Origin: Escherichia coli
Lineage (GTDB): Bacteria; Pseudomonadota; Gammaproteobacteria; Enterobacterales; Enterobacteriaceae
Strand: one strand, 5' to 3'
DNA length: 64,000 bases
Assembly: GCF_048403405.1 (NCBI RefSeq)
Contig: NZ_CP183129.1
A model generated the notes under the pieces. It saw only the letters and a program-made list of their open reading frames with translations, made no database searches and was not told where the DNA came from. Positions 7,093-29,775 of this stretch are shown here, piece by piece; position 1 is the first letter of the stretch, and each line of letters starts with the position of its first letter. The position numbers and the translations under genes are program-made.

Positions 7093-7683
7093 TGTTCTAC
7101 CTCGTCATCCTTGTTAAATCAGTCGAAATCAATAGCGTAATTATGACGTGTTTTCGAAGTAAAACCGTAGCAATAAATCAATAAAAGTGGAAAACACGTA
7201 GTAATATCGTATTATTCCATAGTAATAGAGTACCATTAACGTAGTTTTTTATTTATCACCATACTCACAGCTTCCGCCCGTAGAAAACGGCTGGATAGTC
7301 TTCAATTTTTCCACGTATAGCCCTGGTGGCTTTACGGGTGAAACCTCCCAGGATAACGAGTTGACATCTGGAAGATGTCATTCATGACCGCACTCATAGA
7401 TTAAATCAATGTATTAATTATAACTTAAGTGTAAAACTCTTTGTCTTCAAGAACAGATAATTAACTACGAACACCAGTAAATACCGGGCTTCTACTCTTT
7501 TTATCACCCTTTCTTTATGAATCAACATTGCCGGTATTAATATTATGTTTATCACTCATTCATTAGATTCAGCATATAGAGGGATGACACCAGAGACAGG
7601 GAAAAGTAATCCAGATCGGCATAGTTCAGTGAAAAGTTACTACAGCACTTATGGATATGTAACCAACCACAAGGAACTGAAGC

Positions 7684-9621: not shown

Positions 9622-9632
9622 TAAGCACTTCC

Positions 9633-10645: not shown

Positions 10646-10684
10646 ACGAGGTCTCCTTTTTTAATTTGAAATAAACGTTGTCTG

Positions 10685-11368
10685 TTACTCTCTGAAGGTC
10701 TGAATTACGTCACTTATGAAACGAAAGTGAGGGAGGGCTGAAATAAACTCTTCACTGGCAGTCAGAGCATCAAGTTCAGGCTTTCTGCGGAAAGAGGTAT
10801 CCAGAACGGTTACGGCGTTAACGTCTTCCATCCGAAACACCTGTAAATTTCTGGTGCGGGTAGCAACAAGAAACCAGTTTTTGGACTGAAATATCAGACG
10901 GCGGGGAGCTACTGCTTCGTAGCTTTTACCGTTAACCAATAATGTAACGGCGCGGTAGTCGCGGATAGCTTCCGCCAGTTTCAGAAAACAGGCAGTCTGC
11001 GTGACGGGAGAAGATAATGCCCCATGCCCAATAAGACACGGCGATACGCCGGAATTGCTGGCAATCAACCGGATCAACTTGCGGTTCTGAGCCGGAATGA
11101 TTCCTGAAATTCCTGAATTACGTATAAACGCAAATGTATTGGGTAAGTGCTCCCGGCCTGTTTGGCGGATAAGTCGGTAACTTCCGCTGCGATGCTCAAG
11201 ATCCAGATGGATCAGGCGTTGCTGAAAATCCCGCTGTAGGGTGCGTTCTGAGACACCAAATTCATCAGCTAATACTTTAAGCTCCAGAGATTCACCAGCC
11301 AGTAAGCGGCTGATAATGACTGATAGCCTGACAGACAGGCGGTCATGATGATCATGCTGTGTTTTCAT
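10685..11368 (-). CDS. HTH plus WYL-domain transcriptional regulator (YfjR-like)
   Basis: I chose the start MKTQHDHHD (227 aa). The product has an N-terminal HTH (LKVLADEFGVSERTLQRDFQ) and a C-terminal WYL-type segment (RRLIFQSKNWFLVATRTRNLQVFRMEDV). The ORF track extends 24 codons further upstream. Confidence 0.65.
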   Translation of the reverse strand: MKTQHDHHDRLSVRLSVIISRLLAGESLELKVLADEFGVSERTLQRDFQQRLIHLDLEHRSGSYRLIRQTGREHLPNTFAFIRNSGISGIIPAQNRKLIRLIASNSGVSPCLIGHGALSSPVTQTACFLKLAEAIRDYRAVTLLVNGKSYEAVAPRRLIFQSKNWFLVATRTRNLQVFRMEDVNAVTVLDTSFRRKPELDALTASEEFISALPHFRFISDVIQTFRE

Positions 11369-12036
11369 AGTGGGGACAGTCCTGTTCTCCCAAAATATCA
11401 TGGTGTTGATACGGGAGATTATGCCGTACAGGTACGACACGTTATGTCGTACTAAAGGGGAGTTGATTGAAAAAATAGTGGGGTAACTGCAGTTATCTAA
11501 TACTCTGAAATATAAGTTAATTGATTAACTCTAAGGCAAGGTCATCATCACAGAAACGACACAACCTGTCGCGTTGCGCATTGTAAGAAAGAGGGTATCT
11601 GATGCGTACGAAAATGATTTAGTTCTGAAAATAGTTGCAAATGAATCAATACATTCTTATTTTTACAAAAAGTTGGAATGCATAAGCCAATTGACCATTA
11701 GCAATGACAAATCCTTCTAGCGCACTTCGTTGATTAAATATAGATTTAGGTATCCAATCTATTCACACATAACGATTTGCTCCGCTGAACTAACCGAGCA
11801 ACACTGCAAAAAAATATACCACGCCGACAATCAAGAAAAGTACTCACCAGTATAAAGTATCAAGTAAATCAATGCGATGTAGAATAAACACCGGCCCTTA
11901 ATGTGATAGGAATCACATTCCTTCAGCCCTGCATTCCGGCATAATCATATCGGAAGGTTAAACTGCTCACGCCATATCCCTTTTTAGGGGGATATCTATG
12001 AATACCGTTTCAATCCACTAATACATAAGGTAATAA

Positions 12037-12579
12037 ATGGACGCAGAGAAAATTCAGTCAGATATAGATGCTCTTTTGACATACATGAACGATGACATGG
12101 AGAATCTTGGTGAAACAATAAAAACCGTTACATTTGGATTCGAAACAGGCCAGAACGACCGCATTGCTATAGACGAGTTGCTTCACTGGCGGGAAGAGTA
12201 TTTGTTCAAAATCATCAATATTTGCCATTCCCGCTCTCTATTACGTAAGGACTTTGGAGATTTTGAGCATGTATCCTTGACAGAAGAGGGTCAGAGTCGT
12301 GCTATATCAATCAAACACGGAAAAAATCGCTCTTACGAGTTAGGGGCCAGCATGCAAATCGCAACGTTAAATGTTCATGGGCCTGCACAGGTTGGTAACG
12401 GTAATACGCAAAACATCCACAATGTATTTAATCAATTACTTCAGCAGATCGAGAAATCTTCCGCTTCTGATGAAGAAAAACAGGAAGCCAAAAAACGCCT
12501 GGCGAAATTTTTGGAACATCCTTTGGTTGGTTCTATTGTCGGCGGTCTTGCTGGTTCCCTTCCTGGTCTAATGGGATGA
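12037..12579 (+). CDS. Hypothetical protein (180 aa) with a C-terminal glycine-zipper-like hydrophobic tail
   Basis: AAGG lies about 9 nt upstream of the ATG. The C-terminus is LVGSIVGGLAGSLPGLMG. The central segment HGPAQVGNGNTQNIHNV is low complexity. The stop overlaps the next start (ATGA). Confidence 0.6.
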   Translation: MDAEKIQSDIDALLTYMNDDMENLGETIKTVTFGFETGQNDRIAIDELLHWREEYLFKIINICHSRSLLRKDFGDFEHVSLTEEGQSRAISIKHGKNRSYELGASMQIATLNVHGPAQVGNGNTQNIHNVFNQLLQQIEKSSASDEEKQEAKKRLAKFLEHPLVGSIVGGLAGSLPGLMG

Positions 12580-12848
12580 TGGAAGATCTTAAAAAAACGA
12601 TCCGACTGCGCTGTGCATTCTGCCGTTCGGAACAGTTCGCCTTACCTTACGAGGGTTACTCCCCCCCAAGTCATAGCTTTGTCGTTTGTGCCAACTGCGG
12701 GAGGGAAAACGACGTCACATCTCTGCTCATCGTTGCTAAATCGAAAGGGATGGAAATAGCTGAAGAGTATGCTGATGAACTAGTTGAACAGATGACGAAA
12801 GATCTGTTTAAAACTTTTAAAAACCGTAAATTCATAAAGATAAAGTAA
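12576..12848 (+). CDS. Small zinc-ribbon protein (90 aa)
   Basis: Two CxxC pairs are visible (CAFCRS ... CANCGRE). The gene is translationally coupled to the upstream ORF by a 4-nt ATGA overlap. Confidence 0.6.
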   Translation: MMEDLKKTIRLRCAFCRSEQFALPYEGYSPPSHSFVVCANCGRENDVTSLLIVAKSKGMEIAEEYADELVEQMTKDLFKTFKNRKFIKIK

Positions 12849-12875
12849 CTGTTACAAAAGTTACATGGAGGACAT

Positions 12876-13850
12876 ATGTCAAGGACTAAAGTACTTTTTG
12901 CTTATTGCCATGAGTTAGATCGGTGTTTATCGATTGATGAAGCAAGAACAGAATTCTTTTCAAAAAAACCGCAAGACAGACAACGATTCACTTTCTCCTG
13001 CAGCGATCGCAACTGCAATGTCACCATTAGTGGTGTTAATTACCATGTCAAAGCGGAAGATGGTGAAAAATTCAAAGTTGCACATTTTCGTTCTCCACAT
13101 CCCCATAATCTGGGATGTGAATGGATGCAGTTTTCTGAGGAAGCTAACCAGCCCCGTCAGGCTAGTGAAACAGAGGCTGACTACACAGAAAGAAAGGCAA
13201 GGCAGAAGCTAAATGATTTTATCAATTGCTTCGATCCTTGTACTGATGAGACAGATTCTGGGCAAAAAAAAACTGGACAACTTACATCACTTTCGCAGGT
13301 AAACCATCTCGCCAAAGACAATGATTTGTCTAACGATAAATCCCACAAGTGGAGCCGTTATACACGAACTAACCAGCTACAGCGCCTAGTAGACACCTGG
13401 CAGGAAGCCAAGAAAACTCTTACATACGACGAGTTCAGAACATTAAAACTAAGAGTCACAAACTACGGAAAGGTTTATTTCCATGAATACATAACGCATA
13501 TTCAGAAAGGGCTAAAAAACCAATATGAAGGCGTCATTTTCGGCGGTGGTTCTTTGGTTAAACGTTATGGTCGTGGCTTTCTCATTCACTTTTTCGATAA
13601 ACATAACGATAAACCAATTCGTCTGTATATCGATAAGAACCTTATGGAGAAAGGGCGATTCAGTCATTATATTGATGAAATATTATCAACAGAGAATGTG
13701 AGATATTTTCGTGTCTTTTTGTTAAACCCAGAAGTTTCCGAAAAAAAAGACCGAACTGGCAAGCCAGTTATCAACCTTGAGATATCAAGCCTGCGACAAT
13801 TGGCGATTTACTACGAACTCAACTCTTCTGAAGATAATGATTTTGTTTGA
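12876..13850 (+). CDS. Hypothetical protein (324 aa) with an N-terminal Cys/His cluster
   Basis: Strong RBS (GGAGG 5 nt upstream). The N-terminus carries C42-x4-C47 ... H70-x4-H75-x-H77-x3-C81 (FSCSDRNCNV...VAHFRSPHPHNLGC), then an acidic/polar linker, then a roughly 160-aa C-terminal domain. No family recognised. Confidence 0.65.
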   Translation: MSRTKVLFAYCHELDRCLSIDEARTEFFSKKPQDRQRFTFSCSDRNCNVTISGVNYHVKAEDGEKFKVAHFRSPHPHNLGCEWMQFSEEANQPRQASETEADYTERKARQKLNDFINCFDPCTDETDSGQKKTGQLTSLSQVNHLAKDNDLSNDKSHKWSRYTRTNQLQRLVDTWQEAKKTLTYDEFRTLKLRVTNYGKVYFHEYITHIQKGLKNQYEGVIFGGGSLVKRYGRGFLIHFFDKHNDKPIRLYIDKNLMEKGRFSHYIDEILSTENVRYFRVFLLNPEVSEKKDRTGKPVINLEISSLRQLAIYYELNSSEDNDFV

Positions 13851-13887
13851 CAGTAGCATGCTAAATTTATAAAAAGGAGAAGTATTT

Positions 13888-14181
13888 ATGGTCCCTGGAT
13901 ATGTATACATATTAATCAACACAAGCATGCCTGGTTTAATTAAAATAGGTCGAACGCTACGCGACTCACGCATGCGTGCGCGTGAACTCTTCTCCACCGG
14001 AGTGCCAACACCGTTTCAAGTTGCTTTTGAGCTGTTCGCTGAACAACATGAAGCTCTCGAGGCTACGGTACATAATGAATTGAATGATTTTCGAGCTAAT
14101 GTGGCACGCGAGTTTTTCCGCTACCCACTCGACAAGGCCGTTGCATTACTAATTCAGCTGCCCCCTCCAAAACGCCACTGA
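13888..14181 (+). CDS. T5orf172 / GIY-YIG-like (MUG113-type) domain protein (97 aa)
   Basis: GYVYILINTSMPGLIKIGRTLRDSRMRARELFSTGVPTPFQVAFELF...HNELNDFRANVAREFF is the T5orf172 domain pattern. AGGAG lies 8-9 nt upstream. The ORF may be the 5' half of a frameshifted longer gene. Confidence 0.7.
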   Translation: MVPGYVYILINTSMPGLIKIGRTLRDSRMRARELFSTGVPTPFQVAFELFAEQHEALEATVHNELNDFRANVAREFFRYPLDKAVALLIQLPPPKRH

Positions 14182-16091: not shown

Positions 16092-18167
16092 TTAATTCAC
16101 ACCCAGCGCCTTATAAACCGCATCAACCGGGTCTGAGTAAAAACTCACCTGAAACTTGGTAAATAACTCTGCCGGAACCGTTGGAATATCCATAGCCGAG
16201 GACATCGGCAACAGAACCCGTTTTGCGCCGCTGTCGAAGGCGAGCTGTAAACTGGCGGCAAGATCCTGCACCGGGTTAATTACTCCACCAAGGGTCATAC
16301 TGCCCAACACCACCATCTGTTCCTGCACCGGCTTTGCCAGCAATATCGAACATAAAGCGATAAGCGCAGCAAGACTGGTTGCGGTGCTAGGGCCAGTATT
16401 ATGCAGTTCAACGACATGAAGGTGATATTCATGATCAGAGAATTTCGCTGCCGCGCTTACCCGATTCAAATTGCCTTTGAAGTAATCGAAACCGACGCGG
16501 ATAGCTTCTTTCGCGGAGGTATTTGAACCCAGGCCCGATACACTATGCTTACCATTACCGGCAGTCATCTGCGTTTCAAAACGATACAGCCCGGTCATAC
16601 CGCTTTCTGCCTGAGTGACCAAATGCACAACGCCCGGCTTTGGCATTCCGGCAGGAATTAGTTCGCTGCCGCCCTGTTCCGGTACGCTTACAAAAAACTC
16701 TTCCAGCGTTTCGTTATCGATGTAGCTAAAGTTCACATCGAAGAACTCCAGGCCGCCCAGTTTTTTAAGTTGCTCTTTCACTCGACGACGAACTTCCATC
16801 GCATAGGTCAGGCAGACTCGTACATCTTCTTTGCTGTACGCGCCATCGGGATGCATGAGTTTTAACAACCCCGACACTGTACGTCGAACAGCAATCACGT
16901 CACGCTGATTGAGGTTATTTCCCAGCTTGAAGAATTTATCAATTGCATCGGAGAAGCTACGTTTACGCATCTCGCGCATGTATTCAGCGAGATAATCCGT
17001 AATCAAACCATAGCGATTGGTGAAAAATTCCGGGCGCATCTTAGGAATTTCCCAACCAGGAATATAGGCATGGAAGCGGTCAAAAAATGCAGTATCAATC
17101 ATCGCATCCGGGAACGGTGCTAGCAGATGGCTGGTTTTGACCAGTGTATCTACGCTCTGATTGATGTTGCCAACAAACACCATGGAGGCTTTGCCTTCAA
17201 TGGAGTCCCGACCACGAGAGAATGAGCCTGATGCCATGTAATCCTTCATGATCTGCACGCCATCTTTGTCTTTGAAGGTGATCCCTGCCACTTCATCAAA
17301 CGCGACGACGTCCCACATTCCCACAAGACCAATCTGCCGGCTGGCCATGTTGTAAAACAAGTTCGCCACCGTGGTTTGCCCGCCAGATACCAGCAGGGAG
17401 TTAGGAGAGCACTCTTTATAAACATGACTCTTACCTGTACCACGTGGACCAAGCTCGCAGACGTTATAGTTGTTTTCCACAAAGGGAATCATGCGAGTAA
17501 TCAGATGCCACTTGGTACGCTGCTCAATATTTGCAGGTTCCATCCCGACCGAACGTAACAGCACATCAATCCACTGGTCGCGATCAAACTGCTTGCGGGC
17601 TTCAAATACCTCGTCCATATCCATATTTGGCATCTGGATCGGCTTCAGTGTGAACAGCGAGAAAGGAGACGTTTTTTGCCCCTCTTCATAAAAGTAGTTC
17701 ACGGTGATCATGCACCAGATGCCACCAGTCAGCAGTTTCTCGTTGTCTTTCACCATCTGCGACGGCACCAGGGCATCTTTAATGCCAAGGTTAGAGAGCT
17801 GGGCTTCGTAAACGTCTTTCTTCTGATTTAGCTTTACCGTGACCTTATCGATAATCTTGTAAGAACCACGCTCGCGAATTAGTGATTTCACTTTTTCTGC
17901 TTCATCCGGGCGGACGTAGTTATCAGAAAGAATACGCTTAACCGACTGTAGCCCCTGCTCGACAACCTCATCGTCATCGGAGGCACAGTACATACCGAGT
18001 AGATATTCCAGTACGTAAACCGGAACATTCGCCCCTTCTTTAAGTTGCTTAGTCAGATCCTTACGCACCACGCGACCGCGAAAGTGCTGATTCAACAATG
18101 AATCCAGGTCCTGAGCCAACACAGAGGCCGTTTCCATGTTACTGGCTGAGTTATCCTGCTGTTGCAT
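16092..18167 (-). CDS. brxL: BREX protein BrxL (Lon-like protease/AAA+ domain)
   Basis: 691 aa. Walker A GPRGTGKSH and a C-terminal Lon-protease-like region. It is the last gene of the canonical type 1 BREX order. Confidence 0.9.
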   Translation of the reverse strand: MQQQDNSASNMETASVLAQDLDSLLNQHFRGRVVRKDLTKQLKEGANVPVYVLEYLLGMYCASDDDEVVEQGLQSVKRILSDNYVRPDEAEKVKSLIRERGSYKIIDKVTVKLNQKKDVYEAQLSNLGIKDALVPSQMVKDNEKLLTGGIWCMITVNYFYEEGQKTSPFSLFTLKPIQMPNMDMDEVFEARKQFDRDQWIDVLLRSVGMEPANIEQRTKWHLITRMIPFVENNYNVCELGPRGTGKSHVYKECSPNSLLVSGGQTTVANLFYNMASRQIGLVGMWDVVAFDEVAGITFKDKDGVQIMKDYMASGSFSRGRDSIEGKASMVFVGNINQSVDTLVKTSHLLAPFPDAMIDTAFFDRFHAYIPGWEIPKMRPEFFTNRYGLITDYLAEYMREMRKRSFSDAIDKFFKLGNNLNQRDVIAVRRTVSGLLKLMHPDGAYSKEDVRVCLTYAMEVRRRVKEQLKKLGGLEFFDVNFSYIDNETLEEFFVSVPEQGGSELIPAGMPKPGVVHLVTQAESGMTGLYRFETQMTAGNGKHSVSGLGSNTSAKEAIRVGFDYFKGNLNRVSAAAKFSDHEYHLHVVELHNTGPSTATSLAALIALCSILLAKPVQEQMVVLGSMTLGGVINPVQDLAASLQLAFDSGAKRVLLPMSSAMDIPTVPAELFTKFQVSFYSDPVDAVYKALGVN

Positions 18168-18177: not shown

Positions 18178-20775
18178 TTAAAAGAAGTCATCCTGAAATG
18201 CCAGGTCGATCGTGATCGGGTAGCGACCATACTCTGTTGCGCTGTCCGCATTCTCCAGGATAAGAACATACTTGTTTTTACGATTGAATGCCGTCCCCAT
18301 GAGTTTCATGGTTACATCGCGGGTGCGTTTACCCATATCTTCGTTATCACTGTCGAAGCATACTGTTTCCGTGCCGGAGACGACCTGGTTGTTTTCATCG
18401 ACGATAAAGATATTCAGCGTGCGCGGCTCATTTAAATCATTCACTGCCGAAGTCTGAATAAAACCAATTTTATCAATGCTGTTAACCAGTTTGATCACCT
18501 GATCCCGCGCAACGACGGGCACGGGCTGCCGCTGGGGTTGCTTCTCAGCCGCTTTCTTTTCAAGCGCGCGAATCTTCAACACAGGAACACACACTTCCTG
18601 CAGCATGGCTCCGCCATGAACGAAACGAGCACCCCCTACGAAGTGGAAACGCTGTACTCCTTTGGGTAACAGGAATTCACTTTCATCGCTTGCGCCTGCA
18701 GTATCAGCCAGTTTGCCGTGCCAGCAAAATTCACTTTCAGGCAGTTGATGGCCTACAATAAAACGCTTATTCGCTTCAATCGTGTCTTTGGCTTTACTTT
18801 CCAGCTTCGTTTTATCCTGCTCCACCAGCGCTTGTTGTTGGAACAGGAAGCCGTGATCGGCGGTAACAAAAATTCGGCTGGCATTAAATCGGCTACGCAG
18901 GCGTGAAACCAGATCTTTTAGCTCAGTGATTGCACTTCGGCAGGCCTCAAACGTTTTATCTTCCGTTGCAGCCTTATCACCCATGGCATCTATAGTGTCG
19001 TGCCAGATATAAACTACGGAAGCGTTGCGGATTTGCTCGTTCACTTCCTGGTTATTGGCGTTCTGCAAGTCCTTTGCTTTCAGCGCTACACCATTCACCT
19101 TCGCAAGAATAGCGGCTCTTTTTTCAAACCCGGAAGTGGACATCCCATCGGCGTATACTACACCAGAATTATCAGGAAGATAGCTCAACGACTCATGAGG
19201 CAACAGTGCGGCCATGCCCAGTTGGGTATAGCTTGGGAGCACTCCGGTCTGGGAGCGCAGCTCTGCACTGAAGTGCTTCTCATAGTTGATATGCCTGCCC
19301 AGCTCTTCCGCCACTTCGTAGCGCAATGCATCCGAGATCACGACAAAAACACGTTTGACCTGCGAGGTGTCAAACTGACGTTTAACATTCTCTTTATAGA
19401 AATTGCGCTGCAGGGGTATGCCGCTAAACTGCCAGGCCTGCATACGGTTTTCCGCTTCCAGCAGTTTGTTCCAGCCGCGACTTAGTTCAGTCAGATACCA
19501 ATTGCTGTATAACTCTTCGATGAATTTATCCAGTTCATGCAGGATCATCGCCCCTTTGCTGTGCACTGGTGCAGCATATTCATTGAACAAACGATAGGTC
19601 TGATCGAAGCGATAAATTTCGTCACAATAGGCCTTCCAGAACGCACCTGTATCGGGGAAATTAAACCCGTCGGTGTAACGGTTACGCAAATTCAGCAAGC
19701 GTTCTGCCTGACGAATAGCATTCCAGATAGAAAGATACTCTGGGCGGGTTTGGCTCCAGTATTTCGCACTGCGCTCTGAAACCAACGCTTTAAACGCATC
19801 TCTGTCCAGAGTGGTGCTCTCTTCCTGCAACTGTGTCACCAGACCACGGATAATAAGTTGCTCAATAGCCTCGAAGGTTTCACATTTTGCCAGTGTATAT
19901 GGTGAGCTGTAGTTGTAGTGTTCTTTTGGCTGGAGCGTCTGCTGCAAATCCTCTGCACAGTAATCGTATTCTACTTTATAGCGACGATCGTTGCGCCACG
20001 CCCCCATAAAGGCCAGTGACGAGGCCCGACCAGCCGCGGTAGCCAGCACATTTTTACTCAACCAGTCACGATGTGCTTCATCACCCTGCGCCCAGAGATC
20101 GGTACAGAACAGTTTCAGAAGCAGATTTTCCATTGAAGGAGATTCAGACTGGTATCCCAACTCAAGGCGAAGAATTTCCCAAAGTACCTCATCCAGGCCA
20201 AGCTTCGTCAGTACGGCGAAAGTGTTCTCGAGTGCGCTATCATCTTGCTGCCGTGCTGCGACAAACTGCTGAACCAAAGCAAATAGTATTTCTTTGGTTT
20301 CGAAGGTACTGGCCCCGACCACCACCGCCAGCATTTTCTTATCGAGAGAGTTTTCCGTTTCGCGCTCGGTGACCCATCCCTTCAGGATCTGAGTTCGCTT
20401 AACGGTAAAGAAGGCTTTGCGAAGCTGAATATGTTCGCGTAAACCGAGTTGCGGGATACCCAGAGAATTCAGGGTGATCGCCGCATAATCAGCGTGGAAT
20501 TCGGTACTATAGAGGCGGATATCCAGCAACCAGTCCTGCTCGCGAGCAGGAACCTCACAGGTGAAATAGAGTAAAAATTTCTGCTCAGGCTCGTCGATTT
20601 CGAGTCGTTTTTTTGTTGCGAGCACAGAAACGCCACGCATATCCAGCAGCGTGACATTGTCGAGATCCAGCTCATTAATTGAATCAGTGAAGCGTTGTTC
20701 CGGGTCGTGCCAGAAGACGATACGGTTGTCGGTAAACTTCTGACGAAGCCCTGATTCCAGTTCTTTAAATTGCAT
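18178..20775 (-). CDS. pglZ: BREX protein PglZ (alkaline-phosphatase-superfamily)
   Basis: 865 aa. The N-terminus (FTDNRIVFWHDPEQRF) and the central PglZ-type region (VVISDALRYE...TADHGF) are visible. It sits between the embedded pair and brxL. Confidence 0.9.
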   Translation of the reverse strand: MQFKELESGLRQKFTDNRIVFWHDPEQRFTDSINELDLDNVTLLDMRGVSVLATKKRLEIDEPEQKFLLYFTCEVPAREQDWLLDIRLYSTEFHADYAAITLNSLGIPQLGLREHIQLRKAFFTVKRTQILKGWVTERETENSLDKKMLAVVVGASTFETKEILFALVQQFVAARQQDDSALENTFAVLTKLGLDEVLWEILRLELGYQSESPSMENLLLKLFCTDLWAQGDEAHRDWLSKNVLATAAGRASSLAFMGAWRNDRRYKVEYDYCAEDLQQTLQPKEHYNYSSPYTLAKCETFEAIEQLIIRGLVTQLQEESTTLDRDAFKALVSERSAKYWSQTRPEYLSIWNAIRQAERLLNLRNRYTDGFNFPDTGAFWKAYCDEIYRFDQTYRLFNEYAAPVHSKGAMILHELDKFIEELYSNWYLTELSRGWNKLLEAENRMQAWQFSGIPLQRNFYKENVKRQFDTSQVKRVFVVISDALRYEVAEELGRHINYEKHFSAELRSQTGVLPSYTQLGMAALLPHESLSYLPDNSGVVYADGMSTSGFEKRAAILAKVNGVALKAKDLQNANNQEVNEQIRNASVVYIWHDTIDAMGDKAATEDKTFEACRSAITELKDLVSRLRSRFNASRIFVTADHGFLFQQQALVEQDKTKLESKAKDTIEANKRFIVGHQLPESEFCWHGKLADTAGASDESEFLLPKGVQRFHFVGGARFVHGGAMLQEVCVPVLKIRALEKKAAEKQPQRQPVPVVARDQVIKLVNSIDKIGFIQTSAVNDLNEPRTLNIFIVDENNQVVSGTETVCFDSDNEDMGKRTRDVTMKLMGTAFNRKNKYVLILENADSATEYGRYPITIDLAFQDDFF

Positions 20776-21344
20776 TATTGATTCTCAAACCATTCGACCA
20801 GTTCATGAGCGCTAGGGCAAGCAGGGTGTCTGGCAGAACTCTGAATATCAAAACCGTGATGCGTTACCATTCTCCTGGCAAATGCGGTTTTAGAACTTCC
20901 CGGTCCCTGTTTTCCTAGCTCGCGTGAAATTACTTTTAAACGATCCCATGGCATTTCAGTTGTAGCTTCAGGTAACTCTTCATTAAATGTGTCTACTTTA
21001 AGCCATTTTTTCATTGCCTCTGAATCGGCAAGAAACCAAGCCTCAACTGCTTTGACTGCGATAAACGAGATGTCGACATCTTGATGGGCAATTCGGGCCC
21101 GTACATCAGCAACAGATGCCGCATCTTCCAGGTCGGTCAGAATACAGATCCGTTCAGCACCTACATTTCTGAGCCTAGCAACGAAATTATCAACATACTT
21201 CGGTAACAGGTTACCACCACCTTTGGCATCAATAACGGGAGTTACCAATTCAAAATTATTCGTGCGCAGAAATGCAATGAACGCTGGTGAATTCACGATG
21301 ATTGACTCAGTATCACCTTCAACGATAAAACCTATTTTTACCAT
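20775..21344 (-). CDS. Small TOPRIM-like protein (DUF4276/DUF4435/RloB class), partner of the upstream ATPase
   Basis: 189 aa. Candidate TOPRIM residues are visible: IGFIVEGDTE (conserved Glu) and ICILTDLED (DxD-like). The start overlaps the ATPase stop (ATGGTAA) and the stop overlaps the pglZ start (TAATG). Confidence 0.6.
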   Translation of the reverse strand: MVKIGFIVEGDTESIIVNSPAFIAFLRTNNFELVTPVIDAKGGGNLLPKYVDNFVARLRNVGAERICILTDLEDAASVADVRARIAHQDVDISFIAVKAVEAWFLADSEAMKKWLKVDTFNEELPEATTEMPWDRLKVISRELGKQGPGSSKTAFARRMVTHHGFDIQSSARHPACPSAHELVEWFENQ

Positions 21345-22459
21345 GGCAAACCGCCATCAAACATATTCATCAGCCACGCGGTATCCAGTGGGATTTCCTT
21401 TTTATCAACCCCCGCATCTGAAGCATGCATCAGCTGAGTTTTCCCCTCTTTTTTACTAACAAACCACAGTTCGTCTGGTTCCAGATTGCGAACAATAGAT
21501 TCACTATGGGTAGTAATAACAATTGGATGATTCAAAGAGGCATTTTCACGCATCAATTGCACAAGTTCCCCAATGGCTTTTGGGTGAATACCGCGTTCAG
21601 GCTCTTCAATAATGGTCATCCCCGTTTGCTGTGCTCGACTCAAGATGGCCGTCATAATACAAAGCGTGAAGATGGTGCCGTCAGAGATAAGATGGGCAGG
21701 AAAGCGGGCACGAGTTCCCTGTTCTTTAAAGGTCAATACCGTTGAGCCATCCAATTTTTGTTTCTCGGTCGATACATTTTCCATCCCCGGAACGATGAGT
21801 TCCATCCACTCCAGTATTTGCTCTTTAAATTCGCTATTCGATTCGAGAGCAGCAAGCACAGAAGCAATGTTTCGACCATGACTGTCCAGAAATGTCGAGT
21901 CAGTTTTGGCGCTATCGGGCTCTTTAGCACGTAACGGATCGATGCGAAAAACAACAATATTGGTCAAAAAAGCGTACAGTTCACTTTTCCCCAGTAGCAT
22001 TAGTGCCGTCATATCTGACGAGTAGTTAGGGATTAAAGTCGCAGGGATTTCATCACTATCGCTCAGGCGAATCATAAGAGTATCAGGGTGCTTACGATCA
22101 ATATAAATATCTCCATCAATGACCAACTTTTCAGTGATTGTTGGTTTTTTATCCATGTTTTTGATCGTCAAGTCATAGGTAAACTGTTTTCCTCCCAGCT
22201 CAATTTGAAGGTGCAGTGAAGCCGTAGTCCGATTTTCCTTACGCAGCTTGTAGCAATGAATCTGCTGAAAACCGCCAAAATCACGGATTGCTTGTGTCGC
22301 CCCGGTTTTCACTACGGCACCAAAAAAAGCCAATGCATCGGTAATGTTACTTTTGCCCGCACCATTGGCTCCAGCAAAGGTGATAAATGGTGGGCTTTCC
22401 ACAAGGGAAAGCTCCGCGATGCTCTTGTAGCCTTTAATAATCAGGGGATGTTGATCCAT
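21338..22459 (-). CDS. ABC-type (AAA_15/AAA_21-like, OLD/RloA/AriA-class) ATPase
   Basis: 373 aa. Walker A GANGAGKSN, an SDG signature-like motif, Walker B MTIIEEPERGIHP and His-loop VITTHS. The start overlaps the pglX stop (TAATG). Confidence 0.8.
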   Translation of the reverse strand: MDQHPLIIKGYKSIAELSLVESPPFITFAGANGAGKSNITDALAFFGAVVKTGATQAIRDFGGFQQIHCYKLRKENRTTASLHLQIELGGKQFTYDLTIKNMDKKPTITEKLVIDGDIYIDRKHPDTLMIRLSDSDEIPATLIPNYSSDMTALMLLGKSELYAFLTNIVVFRIDPLRAKEPDSAKTDSTFLDSHGRNIASVLAALESNSEFKEQILEWMELIVPGMENVSTEKQKLDGSTVLTFKEQGTRARFPAHLISDGTIFTLCIMTAILSRAQQTGMTIIEEPERGIHPKAIGELVQLMRENASLNHPIVITTHSESIVRNLEPDELWFVSKKEGKTQLMHASDAGVDKKEIPLDTAWLMNMFDGGLPW

Positions 22460-25400
22460 TATGCCTCCTGTGGCGCACTGCCGGTGATCGCCTTGACATC
22501 CGCCAGCAGATCGCCAAATTTGCCGTAGTTAACCTTAACGCCGTCATCCAGATCAATAGTGATACGTCTATCAGCATAGTGACGCAAGCGATCGTCAAAA
22601 TTGCGCAGCTCGTTGAATTTTTTAGTCAACCCATCCAGCTCTTTTTTCAGGCGTGTGGTGGCAGCGCCCGATTCTGCATTTTTAAGCTGATCGTTAACAA
22701 GATCGATATTTCCCTGGTAGCGTGCCAGCAGCGGAACTACATATTCGGTACGCATACGTGACAATGTGCCTTCATTATAACGGTGCAGATACACCAGGCA
22801 CTCAAACGCCTTCTCTTTACCTGAGCTGAATAGCCAGTAAATTGGGCGCTTCTTGTACATCTTCATATGATCTTTCCAGAACTGGGTGGAAAGATAGCGA
22901 CGGATGGTATCCAGCGAAGACTCGCCTTTTTTCGGCTTGATTGCGTACAAGCAGAGGCTTTCGGCGATGAAATCGAGGTTTTCTTGTAAATGTTCTTCGC
23001 CCCAGACTGTGCGAACGAACTCTTTAACGCGGGAGGTAACATCGTCATCGAACCAGTCAGAATCCATTAATGGCAGGATACCATCTTCATCGGCAGGGAA
23101 GGTTTGGTAGGCGCCTTCATCTACTAATTCAGAAAAGCCTTTGTTACCTTCGTGGGCGTAGACCAAGCCTTCGCGATCAAGGGAATAGCGGCCCATCATG
23201 CAGCCAATAGCCAGGCTAAGTGAGTTTATAACCTGAATCGCCTTAAATTGGTTATATTCATCTTTTGAAATTGAGCTTAATGACTGGAAAACATTATTTT
23301 CCAATGTTATTTCTGCCAAGGCAAGATTGTTTTCGTTTAAAATATTGCATTTTTCATAAAATATTTTGTTATTATCACATTCTAGCTCATGTGTTTTGAT
23401 TAACTTTTGATAAAAAACTTCAGTCTGGTTTTTTAATATGTTTACTAGGCTGCCGTTTTGAAACGCATCCTGATTGAAGGAAAACTGATAACTATTTTCC
23501 TGCTGACTCCAATTTTCTTTAGCCAGAGAAATTAGTTCAGCAGTGTTCAAGGATAGGCTCTCAATCATTTTCTCATCAAAAAATGCTGGTAATTTACTTA
23601 TATCCCCCGGTTGATAATTTAATGTTGGAGAGATAGCCTTTATTAAAGAGATAATAATATCACTATTAATAAATGCTAACACAGGCAGGTAAAGGTCTTC
23701 ATTATTAACAAATAACGAAGACCCTGCATTGTCAAATAATGAGGACTCTGAGACTCTTGCAGATGTCTTGCTTGAGGAAAGAGCGTTCCATGTAATCCCT
23801 TTTTTAAATATAAAATCTAAATTATAGTTATGCGAACGTACCTTTCCTGATTTTTCATCGGTAAAATTTTGAATTTCCCGACCATCGTCGAACCAATTTA
23901 CGACATAATCAAGATTACCGTACCACTTTCTATATTCACCACCTTTCTGATAAGGGAACCATTTCAGACCGGATTTTTTAGCTTGAATACGATCAGTAAA
24001 ATCAAAACCGATATTCGCGAAATTAACTTCATGCCAAAAACGTAAAAAACGCTCATTATCCGCTGTTGCCATTCCAAGGCGTGTTGAGGCAATTTGAGAT
24101 ATTTTTTTATTATCAAATAAATTAACCTCACTTTCGCTGAGCCAATACGCAATCGGTGCACCGGGGATTTTTTGGAAGTCATCGGCAGCGGCAGTCTTTA
24201 AACGATCGTTTTTAACCGGAAATTCTTTTGGATATCCTTCATCATTGATATCGTCATTCTCAGTATAAGAGAATGCCCCTTGATAAGAAGGAATGTGAAC
24301 ATTTCTAAACACTGTTGCATTGGTACCAAAGGCAATTTTCATAACGCCATTGCCCATATGTACCATCGTCTCAATAGTGTATTTATCCAATATATTCGCA
24401 CGCATATTTTCATAGCTAGACAAAAACATCCATGATTGCATAGTCACCATTGAGTTGTACGCAGCATCTTTGAGCCAGGAAAAACCCCGCTCAATAAACA
24501 TCGCAAACAAATCTGACTTACTGTCCGGGAATTGTTTCTTAGCGAACTCTTTCAGTTCACCGTTCATCCCTTTCCCACCCATATACGGCGGGTTCGCCAC
24601 AACCGCATCGTAACGCTGCGCCAAAATCCACGCCTGCTGAATATACGGAATCAGCTCTGCTGCCGCTTCTTTCTGCGGGATATCACCCTCGACAGCCAGA
24701 CGATATAGTCCACCCAGGAATGTCTTCAGCGCCGTTTCATCTTCCTGCGGCACCTGAATCAGTGATCCCAGCGTTTTTGCACTAGTGAACAAAGCCAGAG
24801 TACGCATCAGTAGCTTATATTCCGCGCTGTCGGTATTGGCCAGTGACGTCCCTTGGGTAAACATATCTCCCATGCTGCCGCGTTGCGCCTGCTGATGAAA
24901 GTTCAGCTTGGTCCACAGTTCAGCGATATCCAGTTTACTTTCCTGCAGCGAAACGATATTCAGGCGAACGCCACGGCCCAGAATACGACGATCGTCCTGA
25001 CGGGCAAGCATCAGCATCGCAAAACCGGAAAGCTGCGCCGCACGGTCATCAATATCTAGGCCGAAAATATTGTTTTCCAGAATCAGCTGCGGAATGTCAC
25101 GGGTACGGTAGCCACGCTCTTCGTAAATGGCCTTCAGCACGTTATAGGCTTCGGTCAGGATATGCCCGGAGCCGCAGGCCGGGTCCAGCACCTTAATACT
25201 TTCTGGTTCAATGCTTGATGGGGTAATAGCCGCCAGCTGTGCCTGCACTTCCGGCGTTTGTTCCGCTGGCTCAATGTAGTACGGCATTTTGCCTTTCAGG
25301 CTGGAGTCCGGATAGGTTTGCAGCCACTGGCGGCCCACCGAGTTCTGCACCAGATACTGCACAATCCAGTTCGGAGTAAACAGCTGGGTAGCGGCAGGAA

Positions 25401-26112
25401 TATCTTCGCTCTTCACCACCTTGCCGATCACATCATCTTTTTTCTCGGAAATATAAAACTGATACAACCAGCCGATCACTTCGACCTGTTTCCAGTCTTC
25501 TTCAGGAATCGTGTCCACCAGCCCGCGCAGAATAGAGTCGGTGCGAGTCAGGTTATCCGGCAATACCAGTTCGATATCATCATTGACTGCTTCGAACAGG
25601 AAAGGCATAGCGCCGTGCAGCGCATGGCACTGTGCAAGCAATAGTTCACGGTACAGCTCTTCGTCACGATCGCCCGCCAGCTTCATCTCCACCAGGCGTG
25701 ATTTGTCCAGCCCAAGTGCATCAGCCACTTCCGGCACATGATCCAGAACCTCAAAACTCCCTTCCAGGGTCGGGTGAGACAGCATACGGAAACCGTGATC
25801 AAGATAGCCATGCAGCTCCATATAGCGAATAGCGCAAAAGCGGTTAAACCAGGTGTAAGCGATGTGCTCCACCAGCACGTCATAGCCCTGCTTTTCTGCA
25901 CGCTTGACCAGACGTTCACGGCGTGAAGCCAGTGATTTATCCAGCGAGAACTGACCATATCGCACACTGTCGCCAAGATCGGTTGCTTGCGCTATTTGCA
26001 GGTTGCCTTTTTTATCGGCGTCAATACCCAGCGTGGTCAGTTTTTGCATGACCGCATCGCGGAACTGTTTACGTGCCACCGGGGCGTATTTTTTGATATT
26101 TGACGTATTCAT
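22459..26112 (-). CDS. pglX: BREX N6-adenine DNA methyltransferase PglX
   Basis: 1217 aa. SAM-binding VLDPACGSGHIL and catalytic VVANPPYMG motifs are visible. Canonical position after brxC. Confidence 0.9.
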   Translation of the reverse strand: MNTSNIKKYAPVARKQFRDAVMQKLTTLGIDADKKGNLQIAQATDLGDSVRYGQFSLDKSLASRRERLVKRAEKQGYDVLVEHIAYTWFNRFCAIRYMELHGYLDHGFRMLSHPTLEGSFEVLDHVPEVADALGLDKSRLVEMKLAGDRDEELYRELLLAQCHALHGAMPFLFEAVNDDIELVLPDNLTRTDSILRGLVDTIPEEDWKQVEVIGWLYQFYISEKKDDVIGKVVKSEDIPAATQLFTPNWIVQYLVQNSVGRQWLQTYPDSSLKGKMPYYIEPAEQTPEVQAQLAAITPSSIEPESIKVLDPACGSGHILTEAYNVLKAIYEERGYRTRDIPQLILENNIFGLDIDDRAAQLSGFAMLMLARQDDRRILGRGVRLNIVSLQESKLDIAELWTKLNFHQQAQRGSMGDMFTQGTSLANTDSAEYKLLMRTLALFTSAKTLGSLIQVPQEDETALKTFLGGLYRLAVEGDIPQKEAAAELIPYIQQAWILAQRYDAVVANPPYMGGKGMNGELKEFAKKQFPDSKSDLFAMFIERGFSWLKDAAYNSMVTMQSWMFLSSYENMRANILDKYTIETMVHMGNGVMKIAFGTNATVFRNVHIPSYQGAFSYTENDDINDEGYPKEFPVKNDRLKTAAADDFQKIPGAPIAYWLSESEVNLFDNKKISQIASTRLGMATADNERFLRFWHEVNFANIGFDFTDRIQAKKSGLKWFPYQKGGEYRKWYGNLDYVVNWFDDGREIQNFTDEKSGKVRSHNYNLDFIFKKGITWNALSSSKTSARVSESSLFDNAGSSLFVNNEDLYLPVLAFINSDIIISLIKAISPTLNYQPGDISKLPAFFDEKMIESLSLNTAELISLAKENWSQQENSYQFSFNQDAFQNGSLVNILKNQTEVFYQKLIKTHELECDNNKIFYEKCNILNENNLALAEITLENNVFQSLSSISKDEYNQFKAIQVINSLSLAIGCMMGRYSLDREGLVYAHEGNKGFSELVDEGAYQTFPADEDGILPLMDSDWFDDDVTSRVKEFVRTVWGEEHLQENLDFIAESLCLYAIKPKKGESSLDTIRRYLSTQFWKDHMKMYKKRPIYWLFSSGKEKAFECLVYLHRYNEGTLSRMRTEYVVPLLARYQGNIDLVNDQLKNAESGAATTRLKKELDGLTKKFNELRNFDDRLRHYADRRITIDLDDGVKVNYGKFGDLLADVKAITGSAPQEA

Positions 26113-26160: not shown

Positions 26161-29100
26161 TTACTGAAGCTGTACGCGTTCACCTGCGTTAATGGCATCC
26201 ATTAGCGTTTTACGGAGTTGTTCCAGCGCTTTGTCTACCTGTTCGGCGTTATCCAGCGTTGTCACACCCGCCGCTCGTTCCATCGTTTTACGCGTGTTTA
26301 CGTAGATGGTTTTTTTCAGCTTGGGTTCAGGCTTAACTACGGGGTCGATAATCCCAGGCTGAGGAGCAGGTTTTGGATCAGACACTTTCTTACGCTGATC
26401 CTCAACCCAGCCGTTCAGCCGTTCATTCGCTTTAAATTGTAGCGCTCGAACCTCAGCCTGTTCTTCCATAATCTGTGGGATCAGGCCGTTCTGCTCCACT
26501 TTCTTACGCGATTGTTGCATCGGGTGTAAAAGCGAGTGTTGCAAGTCAGCAGGGACGTGCATCTCCTGCATGCTTTGCTTAAGTTCATTGATATGACCAT
26601 CGATCTGTAGCAGCGCATGGCTTCGATATTCTTCGACCAGACGCTGGTTGATGGTTTCAACGGTTTCAATCAGCGGGATAATCCGATGCAGTTCTCCATA
26701 AGGTCGTGCCTTGCTGTAGATCCCTTCCAGTTCCTGTAACGCCTTTTGGGCCGTTTCGTCTTTATCCAGCGCGTTACGGTTAGCTTTAAAACTGCCATTC
26801 AACGCCATACTCAAGCGCTGCCAGGTAGCGTATTGGTTTTTGTAGAAGCTAACCAAATCGTCCCAGTCTTCCGAGAAATCTTTAAGATCGTCAGCCGCTG
26901 CGGTGATTTTTTCAATGACCGCGTATTCCTCTTTCTCGTTAAGGATCCCGTTCAGCAATACCAGACCTTCTTCTATCTCTTTACGGCCAGGGTTTTGTCC
27001 ACTCTCTGCACGAGTTTTAAAAACAGTCAACTCGCTATTCCAGCGGCCAAAGAGTTCGCGAATATGAGAGACCAACGACTGTTCTTCACGCTCGTTAAAC
27101 GGCTCTCCAGCAATCTCTGCCATCAGCTGCGCAGCTTTAGTCAACTGTGCTTCATCATGGCGACGAACTTTATGCAGACGCAAATCGCTGTAACGACGTG
27201 AATTATTAAACGCGTCCCACGCCTGCTTCAGTGCGATTTCACTGCCTTGCAGAGTGAAGCTGTATTTACCGCTGCGTGCCAGCCGAGCAACCAGCAATTT
27301 GACTTCATCTTCCGGCCAGCCAAACGGGCGACGGCCAAAAGTGGTGAGAATATCCCGCAGGTAAACTGGCTTATGAGTCTCAATACTCATGCTGATCCAG
27401 TTATCCACTTCACGCATCGCCTCTGGGTTGGATTCTTCCATACCCCCGAGATCGAGCTGGGTATCATTTTCTACTGTCAACAGCGCGTGAGTTTCACGAT
27501 TTACGTCTCCGGTACTAAGACGCAGCAATTTTAGTTTAGAGAAACTGTTCTCGATAACGTAACCGCAGGCTGCATCCACGATAGCTAACGGCGAAGAGGA
27601 TTTCTTATCCAGCCGTTCGCCCAGCGCCCAGACATCAGCTTGAGCCAGCAAGCCTTCAATCTGCGCCTTAAGCGTTTTTTCACGCATACTATTTTCACGG
27701 CCTTTTTCCGCCAACAGCGTTGCCTGTTCCGGGCGCTGGCCGCTTTGCTTGCTGAGGAAAGCTTTGGTCTGAGCGTACATGGTCAGGTCTTGCCAGGTAC
27801 GAGCCTCATCAGGCAGGCAAATTAAGATGCAGTCTTTACTGTCCGTCATCAGCAGACTATTAGAATGCGCACCCTTATAGCTCTCGTAGTTCGAGTCCAG
27901 TGGCGTGAGCACTTTAACCACCAGATCGTTAAGATTCGCACCATCCAGCGGATGTCCGTTACAAAAACGACTGATATCAAAATCCTGCTTATTGGCCGGA
28001 TAGCGATATCTTTTGTTTTTCAGGATCTCTTCGAAAATGATGGTTGAGAGTTGCTTATTGATGGTGGTGAATTCCACGTCAATATTGCGGATTTCGTTTT
28101 CAATCTCTTTTTCTTCGTTAGTGAGAAAAACAAATTTGTCATCAATACGCGAGATCAGCATCTCAGCCTGCAGACGATTAAGGCTGGCTTCAATCTGTCG
28201 ACGGAGTTCCACTTTATCAGTATCAATACGCTCAATAGAGAGCGTGACGAGATTGTCGAGAGTACTTTTCAGCACATCGACGTAGCGGATCAGGAACAGT
28301 GTCTTTAGTAGTTTGCCGTCAAATTCAGTCAGTGACGGAGACTGGCAGGCCTGAATAATAGTGCGGCTAACTGCAGGTTCCAGGAAGCTTTCAATCGCTG
28401 AATAGAAGCGCCAGAACGGGACCAGACTATCCAGACCATCTGCGGAGATTTGCACAGCAGCCGACTGGAAGGCATCTAGCAAAGAGCGCTCCCCCATTGC
28501 CAGCTGCTTACCTGCGGCCCCTTTAGTACGGATTGATTCAAAGACTTTTTGCAGGATCTGGTAATGCCACGGTACAAACGGATAGTTATCCACGAACTCG
28601 CGGCTGTTTGTATAGGCTCGCAGAGTAGCGGTCGTTGTCGTGTCAAACGCCAACTGGTTACGCAGAATATCGCCTTTTTCCTGCCAGATAGCTTCCAGCG
28701 CCGGTATTGCCGCATCGGTTTTTACCAGCAGACGTTTCTGGATAACTTCTGAAGTATTCGAGCTGGAGAGTTGTAAGCGCGTTGAGAAACGTCCCTGAAT
28801 CTTGGAGAAGTCCTGACCATCACGACTGCTCATACCGCCAATAGCAGCATTAATGTCAGCCTGGGAGGTAACTATCACCCATGCCCGCCCACCACAAATA
28901 ACGCCCAAGTTTTCGGTGATAGTTTGCAGCTTGAGCATCATCTGAGCATCTTTACCAATGAACTGACCAACTTCATCGACCATAAACAGGATATTGCGAT
29001 TACCATGGCTGTCGAGCCACTCTTTCACCCACGTACAGAAATTTTTGATATCCAATGGGAAGTTCTTATCAAGTTGCTCGATCCATTGACGAGAAGACTC

Positions 29101-29775
29101 TTCACTCTGGCCTGTAGCAATACTCAGTGCCTGAGCCATCTGATCGTTTATCATCAGATAAACATCACGTTCGTCTTCCCAGCGAGACCCTGTAATGTCC
29201 GCGAAGGCTGCCCTAAAGGTATCAAATTGTCCACGCTTATCGAGCTCACGTTCCAGATGTGCAATATGTGGGAAGTCGCCACAATAACCAGCTAGTTCGT
29301 TAAAGACTTTCAGAAAGACTTTGAGTATGGCATCAACGCCATCTTCAACATTCGCACGTGAGTCAATATTGAATAATATGACATCGGTCGGATGTTGTAC
29401 CGATTTCCGAATATCAGCCAATAGCAGTGCATCATCAATTTTCTCTTCAAAGAAGGAAAGTGCATTACGAGTGACACCATTATGGCTTACTTCGCGGTTC
29501 GCCAGTAGATAGGATAAGATCTTAATGAAGTGTGATTTACCCGAACCAAAGAAGCCTGAAACCCAGACGCCTATTTTGTCAGCAAGCTGTAATCTGCCAG
29601 GGCCAGTAGCAGGGGCATATACTTCAAAGAACTGACGCAGGTGACCATCCAGCTCTCTGGTAATGACATACTCATCCAGTTCTATCCAGGCGCTTTCGTC
29701 GTCGGTCTGCTCGGCTTTAACCACGCCGTTAATATTACGTTTTAGCTGTTTCTCAAAAATTTGTTCAATATTCAT
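26161..29775 (-). CDS. brxC: BREX ATPase BrxC/PglY
   Basis: 1204 aa. P-loop GFFGSGKSHFIK near the N-terminus and Walker B-like ILFMVDEVGQ. Canonical position. Confidence 0.9.
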   Translation of the reverse strand: MNIEQIFEKQLKRNINGVVKAEQTDDESAWIELDEYVITRELDGHLRQFFEVYAPATGPGRLQLADKIGVWVSGFFGSGKSHFIKILSYLLANREVSHNGVTRNALSFFEEKIDDALLLADIRKSVQHPTDVILFNIDSRANVEDGVDAILKVFLKVFNELAGYCGDFPHIAHLERELDKRGQFDTFRAAFADITGSRWEDERDVYLMINDQMAQALSIATGQSEESSRQWIEQLDKNFPLDIKNFCTWVKEWLDSHGNRNILFMVDEVGQFIGKDAQMMLKLQTITENLGVICGGRAWVIVTSQADINAAIGGMSSRDGQDFSKIQGRFSTRLQLSSSNTSEVIQKRLLVKTDAAIPALEAIWQEKGDILRNQLAFDTTTTATLRAYTNSREFVDNYPFVPWHYQILQKVFESIRTKGAAGKQLAMGERSLLDAFQSAAVQISADGLDSLVPFWRFYSAIESFLEPAVSRTIIQACQSPSLTEFDGKLLKTLFLIRYVDVLKSTLDNLVTLSIERIDTDKVELRRQIEASLNRLQAEMLISRIDDKFVFLTNEEKEIENEIRNIDVEFTTINKQLSTIIFEEILKNKRYRYPANKQDFDISRFCNGHPLDGANLNDLVVKVLTPLDSNYESYKGAHSNSLLMTDSKDCILICLPDEARTWQDLTMYAQTKAFLSKQSGQRPEQATLLAEKGRENSMREKTLKAQIEGLLAQADVWALGERLDKKSSSPLAIVDAACGYVIENSFSKLKLLRLSTGDVNRETHALLTVENDTQLDLGGMEESNPEAMREVDNWISMSIETHKPVYLRDILTTFGRRPFGWPEDEVKLLVARLARSGKYSFTLQGSEIALKQAWDAFNNSRRYSDLRLHKVRRHDEAQLTKAAQLMAEIAGEPFNEREEQSLVSHIRELFGRWNSELTVFKTRAESGQNPGRKEIEEGLVLLNGILNEKEEYAVIEKITAAADDLKDFSEDWDDLVSFYKNQYATWQRLSMALNGSFKANRNALDKDETAQKALQELEGIYSKARPYGELHRIIPLIETVETINQRLVEEYRSHALLQIDGHINELKQSMQEMHVPADLQHSLLHPMQQSRKKVEQNGLIPQIMEEQAEVRALQFKANERLNGWVEDQRKKVSDPKPAPQPGIIDPVVKPEPKLKKTIYVNTRKTMERAAGVTTLDNAEQVDKALEQLRKTLMDAINAGERVQLQ

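Follow-up and report, generated by a model that had tools for sequence, protein, structure and literature searches.

What are two additional genes doing between pglX and pglZ of a bacteriophage exclusion (BREX) operon? The locus in question is in Escherichia coli, within a 64,000-nucleotide stretch of contig NZ_CP183129.1 (RefSeq assembly GCF_048403405.1), here called the window, and the two genes encode an ATP-binding cassette (ABC) ATPase of 373 aa and a partner of 189 aa. An initial annotation had taken the pair for a split OLD-type nuclease, made up of an ABC ATPase with a small TOPRIM-like partner, a description that is supported in effect at the level of the superfamily; its suspicion that the pair, with proteins smaller than those of PARIS, is a distinct subtype was also sound, the pair being HEC-01 with a DUF4276-type partner. 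Based on the evidence assembled below, the pair is probably a HEC-01-type two-gene mobile cassette, consisting of an ABC ATPase and a putative DUF4276 nuclease, that is carried as cargo by BREX and may provide back-up or abortive defence, the function being proposed by analogy.

The pair, its junctions and its family

The two genes and their three junctions are as follows.

21338-22459, minus strand: 373-aa ABC ATPase of HEC-01A type; RefSeq 'AAA family ATPase', WP_000371966.1
20775-21344, minus strand: 189-aa DUF4276-type TOPRIM-like protein of HEC-01B type; RefSeq 'hypothetical protein', WP_000238714.1
22461 to 22457, minus strand: TAATG, pglX stop and ATPase start, identical in Yersinia ruckeri (locus L001)
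21344 to 21338, minus strand: ATGGTAA, small-gene start and ATPase stop, a 7-nt overlap
20777 to 20773, minus strand: TAATG, small-gene stop and pglZ start

Both the coordinates and the minus-strand junction sequences agree with the earlier statement that two genes have been inserted between pglX and pglZ with an overlap at every junction. A strong AGGAGG Shine-Dalgarno sequence (22469 to 22464, minus strand) is located 4 nt upstream of the TAATG shared by pglX and the ATPase gene, and a promoter and terminator scan inside the pair returned nothing above chance, with fewer sites than in shuffled sequence. The family is given by PADLOC, in which HEC-01A (PDLC04176) matches the ATPase at E 1.2e-181 (residues 1-373 against profile positions 1-371 of 371) and HEC-01B (PDLC04185) matches the product of the adjacent, co-oriented small gene at E 5.2e-100 (residues 1-189 against profile positions 1-188 of 188). 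Judged from these matches, the pair is a HEC-01/DUF4276-type cassette and belongs to an already catalogued family, HEC-01 standing for Hma-embedded candidate 01 in PADLOC-DB v2 (Payne et al., bioRxiv 10.1101/2024.01.29.577857). HEC-01 is without a demonstrated phenotype, and membership therefore gives the pair a name and not a function.

Both genes are real and under strong purifying selection, with function retained; relative to its Y. ruckeri orthologue, the small gene has a dN/dS (the ratio of non-synonymous to synonymous substitution) of 0.084 and the ATPase gene one of 0.067, and homologues of the pair number in the hundreds. The pair had also been described as more AT-rich than the flanking BREX genes, and this is the case, chiefly at third codon positions: GC content and GC at third codon positions (GC3) are 0.437 and 0.35 in the small gene, 0.447 and 0.44 in the ATPase gene, and 0.49 and 0.54 in pglZ and brxL.

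The ATPase

The Walker A, Walker B and His-loop motifs of the AAA_15/21 ABC class, picked out by the initial annotation, are present and invariant across 41 homologues, the set to which all statements of invariance in the ATPase refer, and Pfam AAA_21 (9.6e-25) and AAA_15 both match the protein. Its main features are these.

22349-22372, minus strand: Walker A, GANGAGKS, aa 30-37, invariant
21596-21619, minus strand: Walker B/D-loop, MTIIEEPE, aa 281-288, with I284, E285, E286, P287 and E288 invariant
21506-21514, minus strand: H-loop, TTH, aa 316-318, invariant
22010-22234, minus strand: hypervariable beta-rich insert, aa 76-150, the least conserved block of the homologue alignment and a putative trigger-recognition region
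21338-21376, minus strand: C-terminal tail, …LDTAWLxNxFDGGLPW, invariant, of low model confidence

The Q-loop residue Q56 and the signature-like SDGT at 259-262 are likewise invariant, and the protein has an intact ABC catalytic set and an ABC-head fold that is SMC/Rad50/OLD-like. Comparison values were 18.7 for Rad50, 17.5 for retron PtuA, 17.4 for SMC, 15.5 for Eco8 OLD, 15.0 for AriA and 12.5 for Ts OLD. The solved sequences nearest to the ATPase family profile are Ts OLD (3e-7) and the retron-Eco8 OLD nuclease (1e-5, with a full-length alignment), and AriA is not among the PDB matches of this profile at E<=0.01.

The C-terminal tail contains ten invariant residues, L358, D359, A361, W362, N365, G369, G370, L371, P372 and W373, and residues 361-373 have a model confidence (pLDDT) of <50. 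Despite that value, the last ~13 residues (…WLMNMFDGGLPW) rank with the most conserved positions of the protein. The invariant tail may be a peptide that docks the partner.

The small protein

The only Pfam family that matches the 189-aa protein is DUF4276 (PF14103), at E 1.2e-5 over profile positions 1-189 of 192 and with 26.1 bits, against a gathering cut-off of 30.2; PF14103 is also precomputed on most of the homologue clusters. At E<=1 there was no Pfam match to DUF4435, RloB (PF13707) or OLD-like_TOPRIM (PF20469), and no NCBIfam model matches the protein. The structural model (pLDDT 96.4) consists of a b1-a-b2-a-b3-a-b4 core and a C-terminal helical bundle. Among homologues, E9, E13, D71, E73, E101 and D107 are invariant or nearly so, and they fall into three groups.

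21318-21320, minus strand: Glu9, the TOPRIM-type Glu with which strand 1 (modelled as residues 2-8) ends, near-invariant
21126-21134, minus strand: Asp71-Leu72-Glu73, a D-x-E after strand 3 (residues 65-71), with D71 invariant and E73 present in at least 90 %
21024-21044, minus strand: E101…D107, the EAWFLAD motif, invariant

With the TOPRIM-like Glu of VEGDTE the initial annotation was right; the DxD-like motif that it saw in TDLED does not stand, since D74 is variable among homologues, and the motif is accordingly read as D-x-E. The placement of the acidic residues is TOPRIM-like: E9 follows strand 1 and D71-x-E73 follows strand 3, as do the catalytic residues of TOPRIM domains.

A swapped insert in the ATPase

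The island of strain N17 is 98-100 % identical to the window except in two tracts. One is the target-recognition region of PglX (~23100-24500), which is 40-60 % identical between the two islands; this part of pglX is AT-rich, with a GC content of 0.365 vs 0.51 in the remainder of the gene, and the middle of pglX looks like a swapped target-recognition domain. The other is the middle of the ATPase gene (21300-22300), which is 64-87 % identical. ATPase residues 1-75 and 344-373 are identical in the window and N17 alleles, and residues 91-150 are merely 40-63 % identical in 30-residue blocks. On the downstream side, the N17 small protein has the same accession (WP_000238714.1) as that of strain TUM14771, and N17 pglZ is essentially identical to that of the window.

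Within the divergent ATPase tract, synonymous sites are saturated (pS 0.77), and the N17 allele resembles a protein of Enterobacter hormaechei. Positive selection behind the divergence was rejected because of this saturation, which points instead to an old ATPase allele imported by recombination. Since the beta-rich insert (~76-150) is swapped between near-identical islands and also shows the lowest conservation across the family, it is the foremost candidate for the surface that confers specificity or recognizes the trigger.

Distribution of the cassette

A species-level scan, with one genome per species, yielded 80 loci encoding relatives of the small protein. The ATPase gene is directly upstream of the small gene in ~78 of them, and 63 of these 78 preserve the 7-nt overlap, in the pattern CC[AGT]TGGT[AG]A, which encodes …Pro-Trp-stop in one frame and Met/Val-Val… in the other. 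The overlap is a dual-coding constraint, in which the Pro-Trp-stop codons of the ATPase also encode the Met-Val start of its partner. Only 17 of the 80 loci are between pglX and pglZ of BREX-1, the other 63 being outside BREX, and the pair is therefore an autonomous cassette. In a Pfam census of the immediate neighbours of the 63 non-BREX loci, no family occurred in more than three of 105 flanking proteins; given such heterogeneity, a second favoured host system was no longer considered.

Members of the family are always stand-alone, and they are few, forming 358 clusters at 50 % identity in a set of 1.84 billion representatives. The phage collection contained just two unannotated ~2.5 kb fragments, which gives no evidence of a phage- or satellite-borne cassette. 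The plasmid collection contained only 11 members, all of them from E. coli and at least 95 % identical in amino acids to the window protein; six such plasmids are within the E. coli genome set, and the pair is between pglX and pglZ in each. Among the E. coli genomes of this BREX lineage, the pair is present in 26 of 26, and it is 100 % identical across eight complete genomes. Yersinia ruckeri carries essentially the same island with identical junctions.

Pseudomonas loci (L002-L009, L012, L049 and L057) have a conserved open reading frame (ORF) of 140-160 aa ~300 nt upstream of the ATPase gene (e.g. L002:8118-8597). It has no Pfam match, and it could encode a third component or a regulator.

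Other occupants of the pglX-pglZ slot

In E. coli R18 (NZ_CP186506.1; L083:7310-9099), which represents a second BREX-1 lineage with a pglZ that is 84.6 % identical, this slot is filled by a non-homologous pair. This pair consists of a 363-aa AAA_21 ATPase and a 233-aa protein that matches PADLOC AriB at 9.4e-15 and whose homologues are named DUF4435. Compared with the HEC-01-type pair, the ATPases share the Walker B region only and the small proteins share nothing; the slot in E. coli BREX therefore holds at least two unrelated families of ATPase-plus-nuclease cassette. The 233-aa protein is seemingly shortened at its C-terminus, its relatives having 277 aa.

That a pair has been reported at this position in the Salmonella StySA BREX locus, as the initial annotation noted, is indeed the case (PMC9009780, PMC11341690). 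The insert in question, STM4493/STM4494, was annotated as an ATPase and a DUF4435 protein and treated as PARIS (PMC9009780, PMC11341690), and it belongs to a different family than the HEC-01-type pair. Additionally, several beta- and gamma-proteobacterial BREX loci have two to four further cassettes stacked in the pglX-pglZ gap and joined by 4-nt overlaps, namely L015:4746-8743, L019:10727-18386, L037:1782-7259 and 9153-13045, and L047:3561-8822, with further examples in L011, L036, L043 and L044. AAA_21 ATPases account for 13 of the 40 extra ORFs in stacked slots, and partners include DUF3226; there are also matches to PADLOC PDC-M25A/B and PDC-M38A, YhcG/DUF1016 nucleases, HipA and a Schlafen-like gene. 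These stacks agree with published surveys of BREX-embedded genes (PMC11341690; PMC12839542; bioRxiv 10.1101/2024.01.29.577857).

The pglX-pglZ gap is a cargo slot, and pairs found in it are not to be named PARIS from position or architecture alone. Both the HEC-01 family and the nesting of ABC-ATPase/TOPRIM modules in BREX are already published; what is added here is the presence of non-homologous occupants of the slot in E. coli, the autonomy of the cassette together with its 7-nt overlap, and the recombinational swapping of the insert. As it stands, the locus is chiefly an annotation correction.

Proposed function and alternative explanations

By analogy with PARIS, OLD and Gabija, a mechanism can be drawn for the HEC-01-type cassette. 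The pair is probably expressed as part of the BREX message, with translation coupled at either end, and its putative nuclease would be held inactive by the ATPase. A trigger derived from the phage, with an anti-restriction or anti-BREX factor as a plausible candidate, would be recognized by the ATPase through its variable beta-rich insert (aa ~76-150), whereupon the nuclease would be released or activated through an ATP-dependent rearrangement. It would then cut tRNA or DNA and arrest the infected cell, thus backing up BREX.

Several observations weigh against this proposal. A HEC-01 homologue gave no protection against any phage tried in the published test (bioRxiv 10.1101/2024.01.29.577857), and the BREX-embedded PARIS of Salmonella showed no activity, with neither Ocr nor Gp5 triggering it (PMC11341690). 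Nothing in the sequence identifies a trigger or a substrate. As for the nuclease itself, the D-x-E of the second acidic motif departs from the canonical DxD, the small protein matched no PDB chain by sequence or by profile, and a Foldseek search of its model against the PDB returned a best E of 0.046, to unrelated alpha/beta proteins. The TOPRIM region of Bp OLD is the nearest solved match to the small protein, with scores barely above those of generic Rossmann-like matches. Because of these scores and the null Foldseek result, the TOPRIM assignment is plausible and moderately supported here rather than proven; it agrees with three papers that independently placed DUF4276 and HEC-01B in TOPRIM (PMC12065111; bioRxiv 10.1101/2024.01.29.577857; PMC11464382).

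Three other explanations can be set against the proposed back-up defence. The pair could be an integral accessory of this BREX lineage that works only with PglX and PglZ, and the junctions, all of which overlap, the lack of any internal promoter or terminator above chance and the presence of the pair in all 26 E. coli genomes of the lineage suit such a role, as does the occurrence of ATPase-DUF4276 pairs within the methylation-based MADS (PMC12065111, PMC11464382). This explanation is disfavoured because most relatives, 63 of the 80 species-level loci, are outside BREX, where they have unrelated neighbours. Also opposed to it are a GC3 unlike that of the BREX genes, the non-homologous cassettes that fill the same slot elsewhere, the E. 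coli HS BREX, which functions without an insert (PMC9009780), and the analogous Salmonella pair, whose deletion left methylation and defence essentially intact (PMC11341690); overall, an obligate accessory appears quite unlikely. Nor is it likely that the pair is a selfish, toxin-antitoxin-like addiction module, in which a nuclease toxin restrained by the ATPase would stabilize the island or plasmid, although the tight two-gene architecture with its conserved overlap, the presence of the pair on conjugative E. coli plasmids and integrative islands, its scattered and heterogeneous contexts, and the Pfam description of AAA_21 as a 'putative AbiEii toxin, Type IV TA system' domain would all fit. 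When HEC-01 was cloned and expressed in E. coli, toxicity was not reported (bioRxiv 10.1101/2024.01.29.577857); moreover, plasmids seldom carry the family except with this BREX island, phages lack it apart from two fragments, and its enrichment within defence systems (17 of 80 in BREX) is better suited to defence than to addiction.

The third explanation, that the pair is true PARIS (AriA/AriB), sensing Ocr-type DNA mimics and cleaving tRNA-Lys, is very improbable. What recommends it is the two-gene logic, an ABC ATPase paired with a TOPRIM-like protein, at the site that the Salmonella pair also occupies (PMC9009780, PMC11341690), along with PADLOC 'AriA' models that match the ATPase, though these are the generic Pfam AAA_21/AAA_15 profiles. 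The AAA_21/AAA_15 domain needed for AriA is indeed present in the ATPase, but it is also that of HEC-01, AbiL, Septu, Gabija, MADS and others. The PARIS-like membership raised by the initial annotation founders on the partner, as the small protein matches neither the defining DUF4435 domain (PF14491) nor PADLOC AriB, even at E<=1, and on the lack of any link to AriA/AriB, which neither protein found in sequence or profile searches of the PDB. A direct hhalign comparison of the DUF4276-like family with the AriB-like/DUF4435 family gave a probability of 2 %, only the strand-1 'VEG' motif being aligned, and in a BLASTP comparison with the AriB-like pair from E. coli R18 only the Walker B region aligned. 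At 373 and 189 aa, the proteins are also much smaller than AriA (~55 kDa) and AriB (~35 kDa).

A broader version of the back-up proposal makes the HEC-01-type cassette a dedicated BREX guard. The insert would bind phage inhibitors of PglX or another anti-BREX factor and thereby set free the putative DUF4276 nuclease; separate BREX lineages would by convergence have acquired pairs without homology in the same pglX-pglZ slot, i.e. HEC-01-type here, AriB-like in R18 and Salmonella, and PDC-M25-type stacks in beta-proteobacteria; and sensor alleles would be shuffled like the target-recognition domains of PglX. Such a guard is conceivable, if doubtful. The idea of a BREX guard is already in the literature, and the relatives put to the test to date have given negative results (PMC11341690; bioRxiv 10.1101/2024.01.29.577857).

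The host operon and its island

The type 1 BREX operon of this E. coli locus is complete and lies on the minus strand. All six BREX-1 core genes were matched by Pfam in one co-oriented cluster, and BREX-1 is also the RefSeq label for an identical locus. The operon and the adjoining landmarks are as follows.

30387-30992, minus strand: brxA, Pfam BrxA, with the start codon from the RefSeq annotation
29788-30390, minus strand: brxB, Pfam BrxB
26161-29775, minus strand: brxC, Pfam BrxC domains
22459-26112, minus strand: pglX, BREX-1 methyltransferase, Pfam Eco57I, N6_Mtase and MmeI_Mtase
18178-20775, minus strand: pglZ, Pfam PglZ, 2.1e-63
16092-18167, minus strand: brxL, Pfam BrxL_ATPase, BrxL_N and Lon_C
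33043-33127, minus strand: tRNA-Leu(CAA), leuX, the attachment site of the island
~31576-32843: P4-type integrase, frameshifted, beside leuX

Window positions 10000-33500 are 99.99 % identical to strain TUM14771, in which the operon is part of an island adjoining leuX, a recognized defence hotspot of E. coli (PMC12707154).

Downstream of brxL, a group of uncharacterized genes (10685-14181) may represent another defence module. It includes a gene at 10685-11440 (minus strand) that RefSeq names as a WYL-domain protein and that has no Pfam match at 1e-5, followed by three co-oriented hypothetical genes (12037-13850, plus strand), one of them a 90-aa ORF at 12576-12848; the other two, 12037-12579 and 12876-13850, gave no match in a Pfam scan. 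A small GIY-YIG nuclease gene (13888-14181) and then an IS3 remnant follow. Other cargo of the leuX island is found at ~775-7100 of the window (via L081:1-6318) and comprises an AbiEii/AbiGii-family toxin with a DUF6088 partner, a CbtA/YeeU toxin-antitoxin pair, RadC, DUF932, DUF4942, a truncated phosphorothioate-dependent restriction gene and an HNH endonuclease.

Comparison with known systems

The closest counterpart is HEC-01 itself, which likewise combines an ABC ATPase with a small TOPRIM-like partner and is embedded in a larger defence system, the host system being Hma there and type 1 BREX here. AbiL and RloAB also join an ABC ATPase to a small TOPRIM-like partner, often within restriction-modification loci, and both had been named by the initial annotation as possible homes for the pair; membership is not borne out by Pfam or PADLOC, in which the small protein has no RloB (PF13707) or AbiLii match at E<=1, and PADLOC AbiLi matches the ATPase at 2.8e-29, far more weakly than does HEC-01A.

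OLD proteins (P2 Old, Bp and Ts OLD, GajA and the retron-Eco8 OLD) are the nearest solved relatives of both halves, and in principle they would be alike in coupling an ABC ATPase to a metal-dependent TOPRIM nuclease. The ATPase and TOPRIM parts are fused there, whereas they are two separate polypeptides here; the small protein has a D-x-E and a C-terminal helical bundle of its own, and the similarity is at superfamily level only. Membership in OLD-family classes 1-2 was rejected on the separate genes and the missing PF20469 match.

PARIS resembles the cassette in the order of an ABC ATPase gene and then a TOPRIM-type partner and in a plausible sensor/effector logic, and the Salmonella StySA example likewise lies between pglX and pglZ of a BREX island at leuX in an enterobacterium. 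The two differ in that AriB is a DUF4435 protein of ~300 aa, whereas the 189-aa DUF4276-like protein has no detectable sequence or profile similarity to it, and in that AriA has helical inserts, whereas the insert of the ATPase here is beta-rich. The Ocr trigger and the tRNA-Lys target are established for PARIS only.

In MADS, Mad3 and Mad4 combine an AAA_15/21 ABC ATPase with DUF4276 in a methylation-based defence locus (PMC12065111, PMC11464382). The NCBIfam MAD3 equivalog (NF047739) gives the ATPase 85.3 bits where its cut-off is 420, and the locus here is BREX-1 with no other mad genes; membership in MADS was rejected on these grounds and because the small protein has no NCBIfam match. If the cassette is active, it would be, after PARIS, a second and mechanistically distinct ABC-ATPase/TOPRIM back-up wired into BREX, and it would provide a first function for DUF4276 and for the Mad3-Mad4 module of MADS. 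Its E. coli background is a tractable one, with natural allelic variants of the putative sensor insert.

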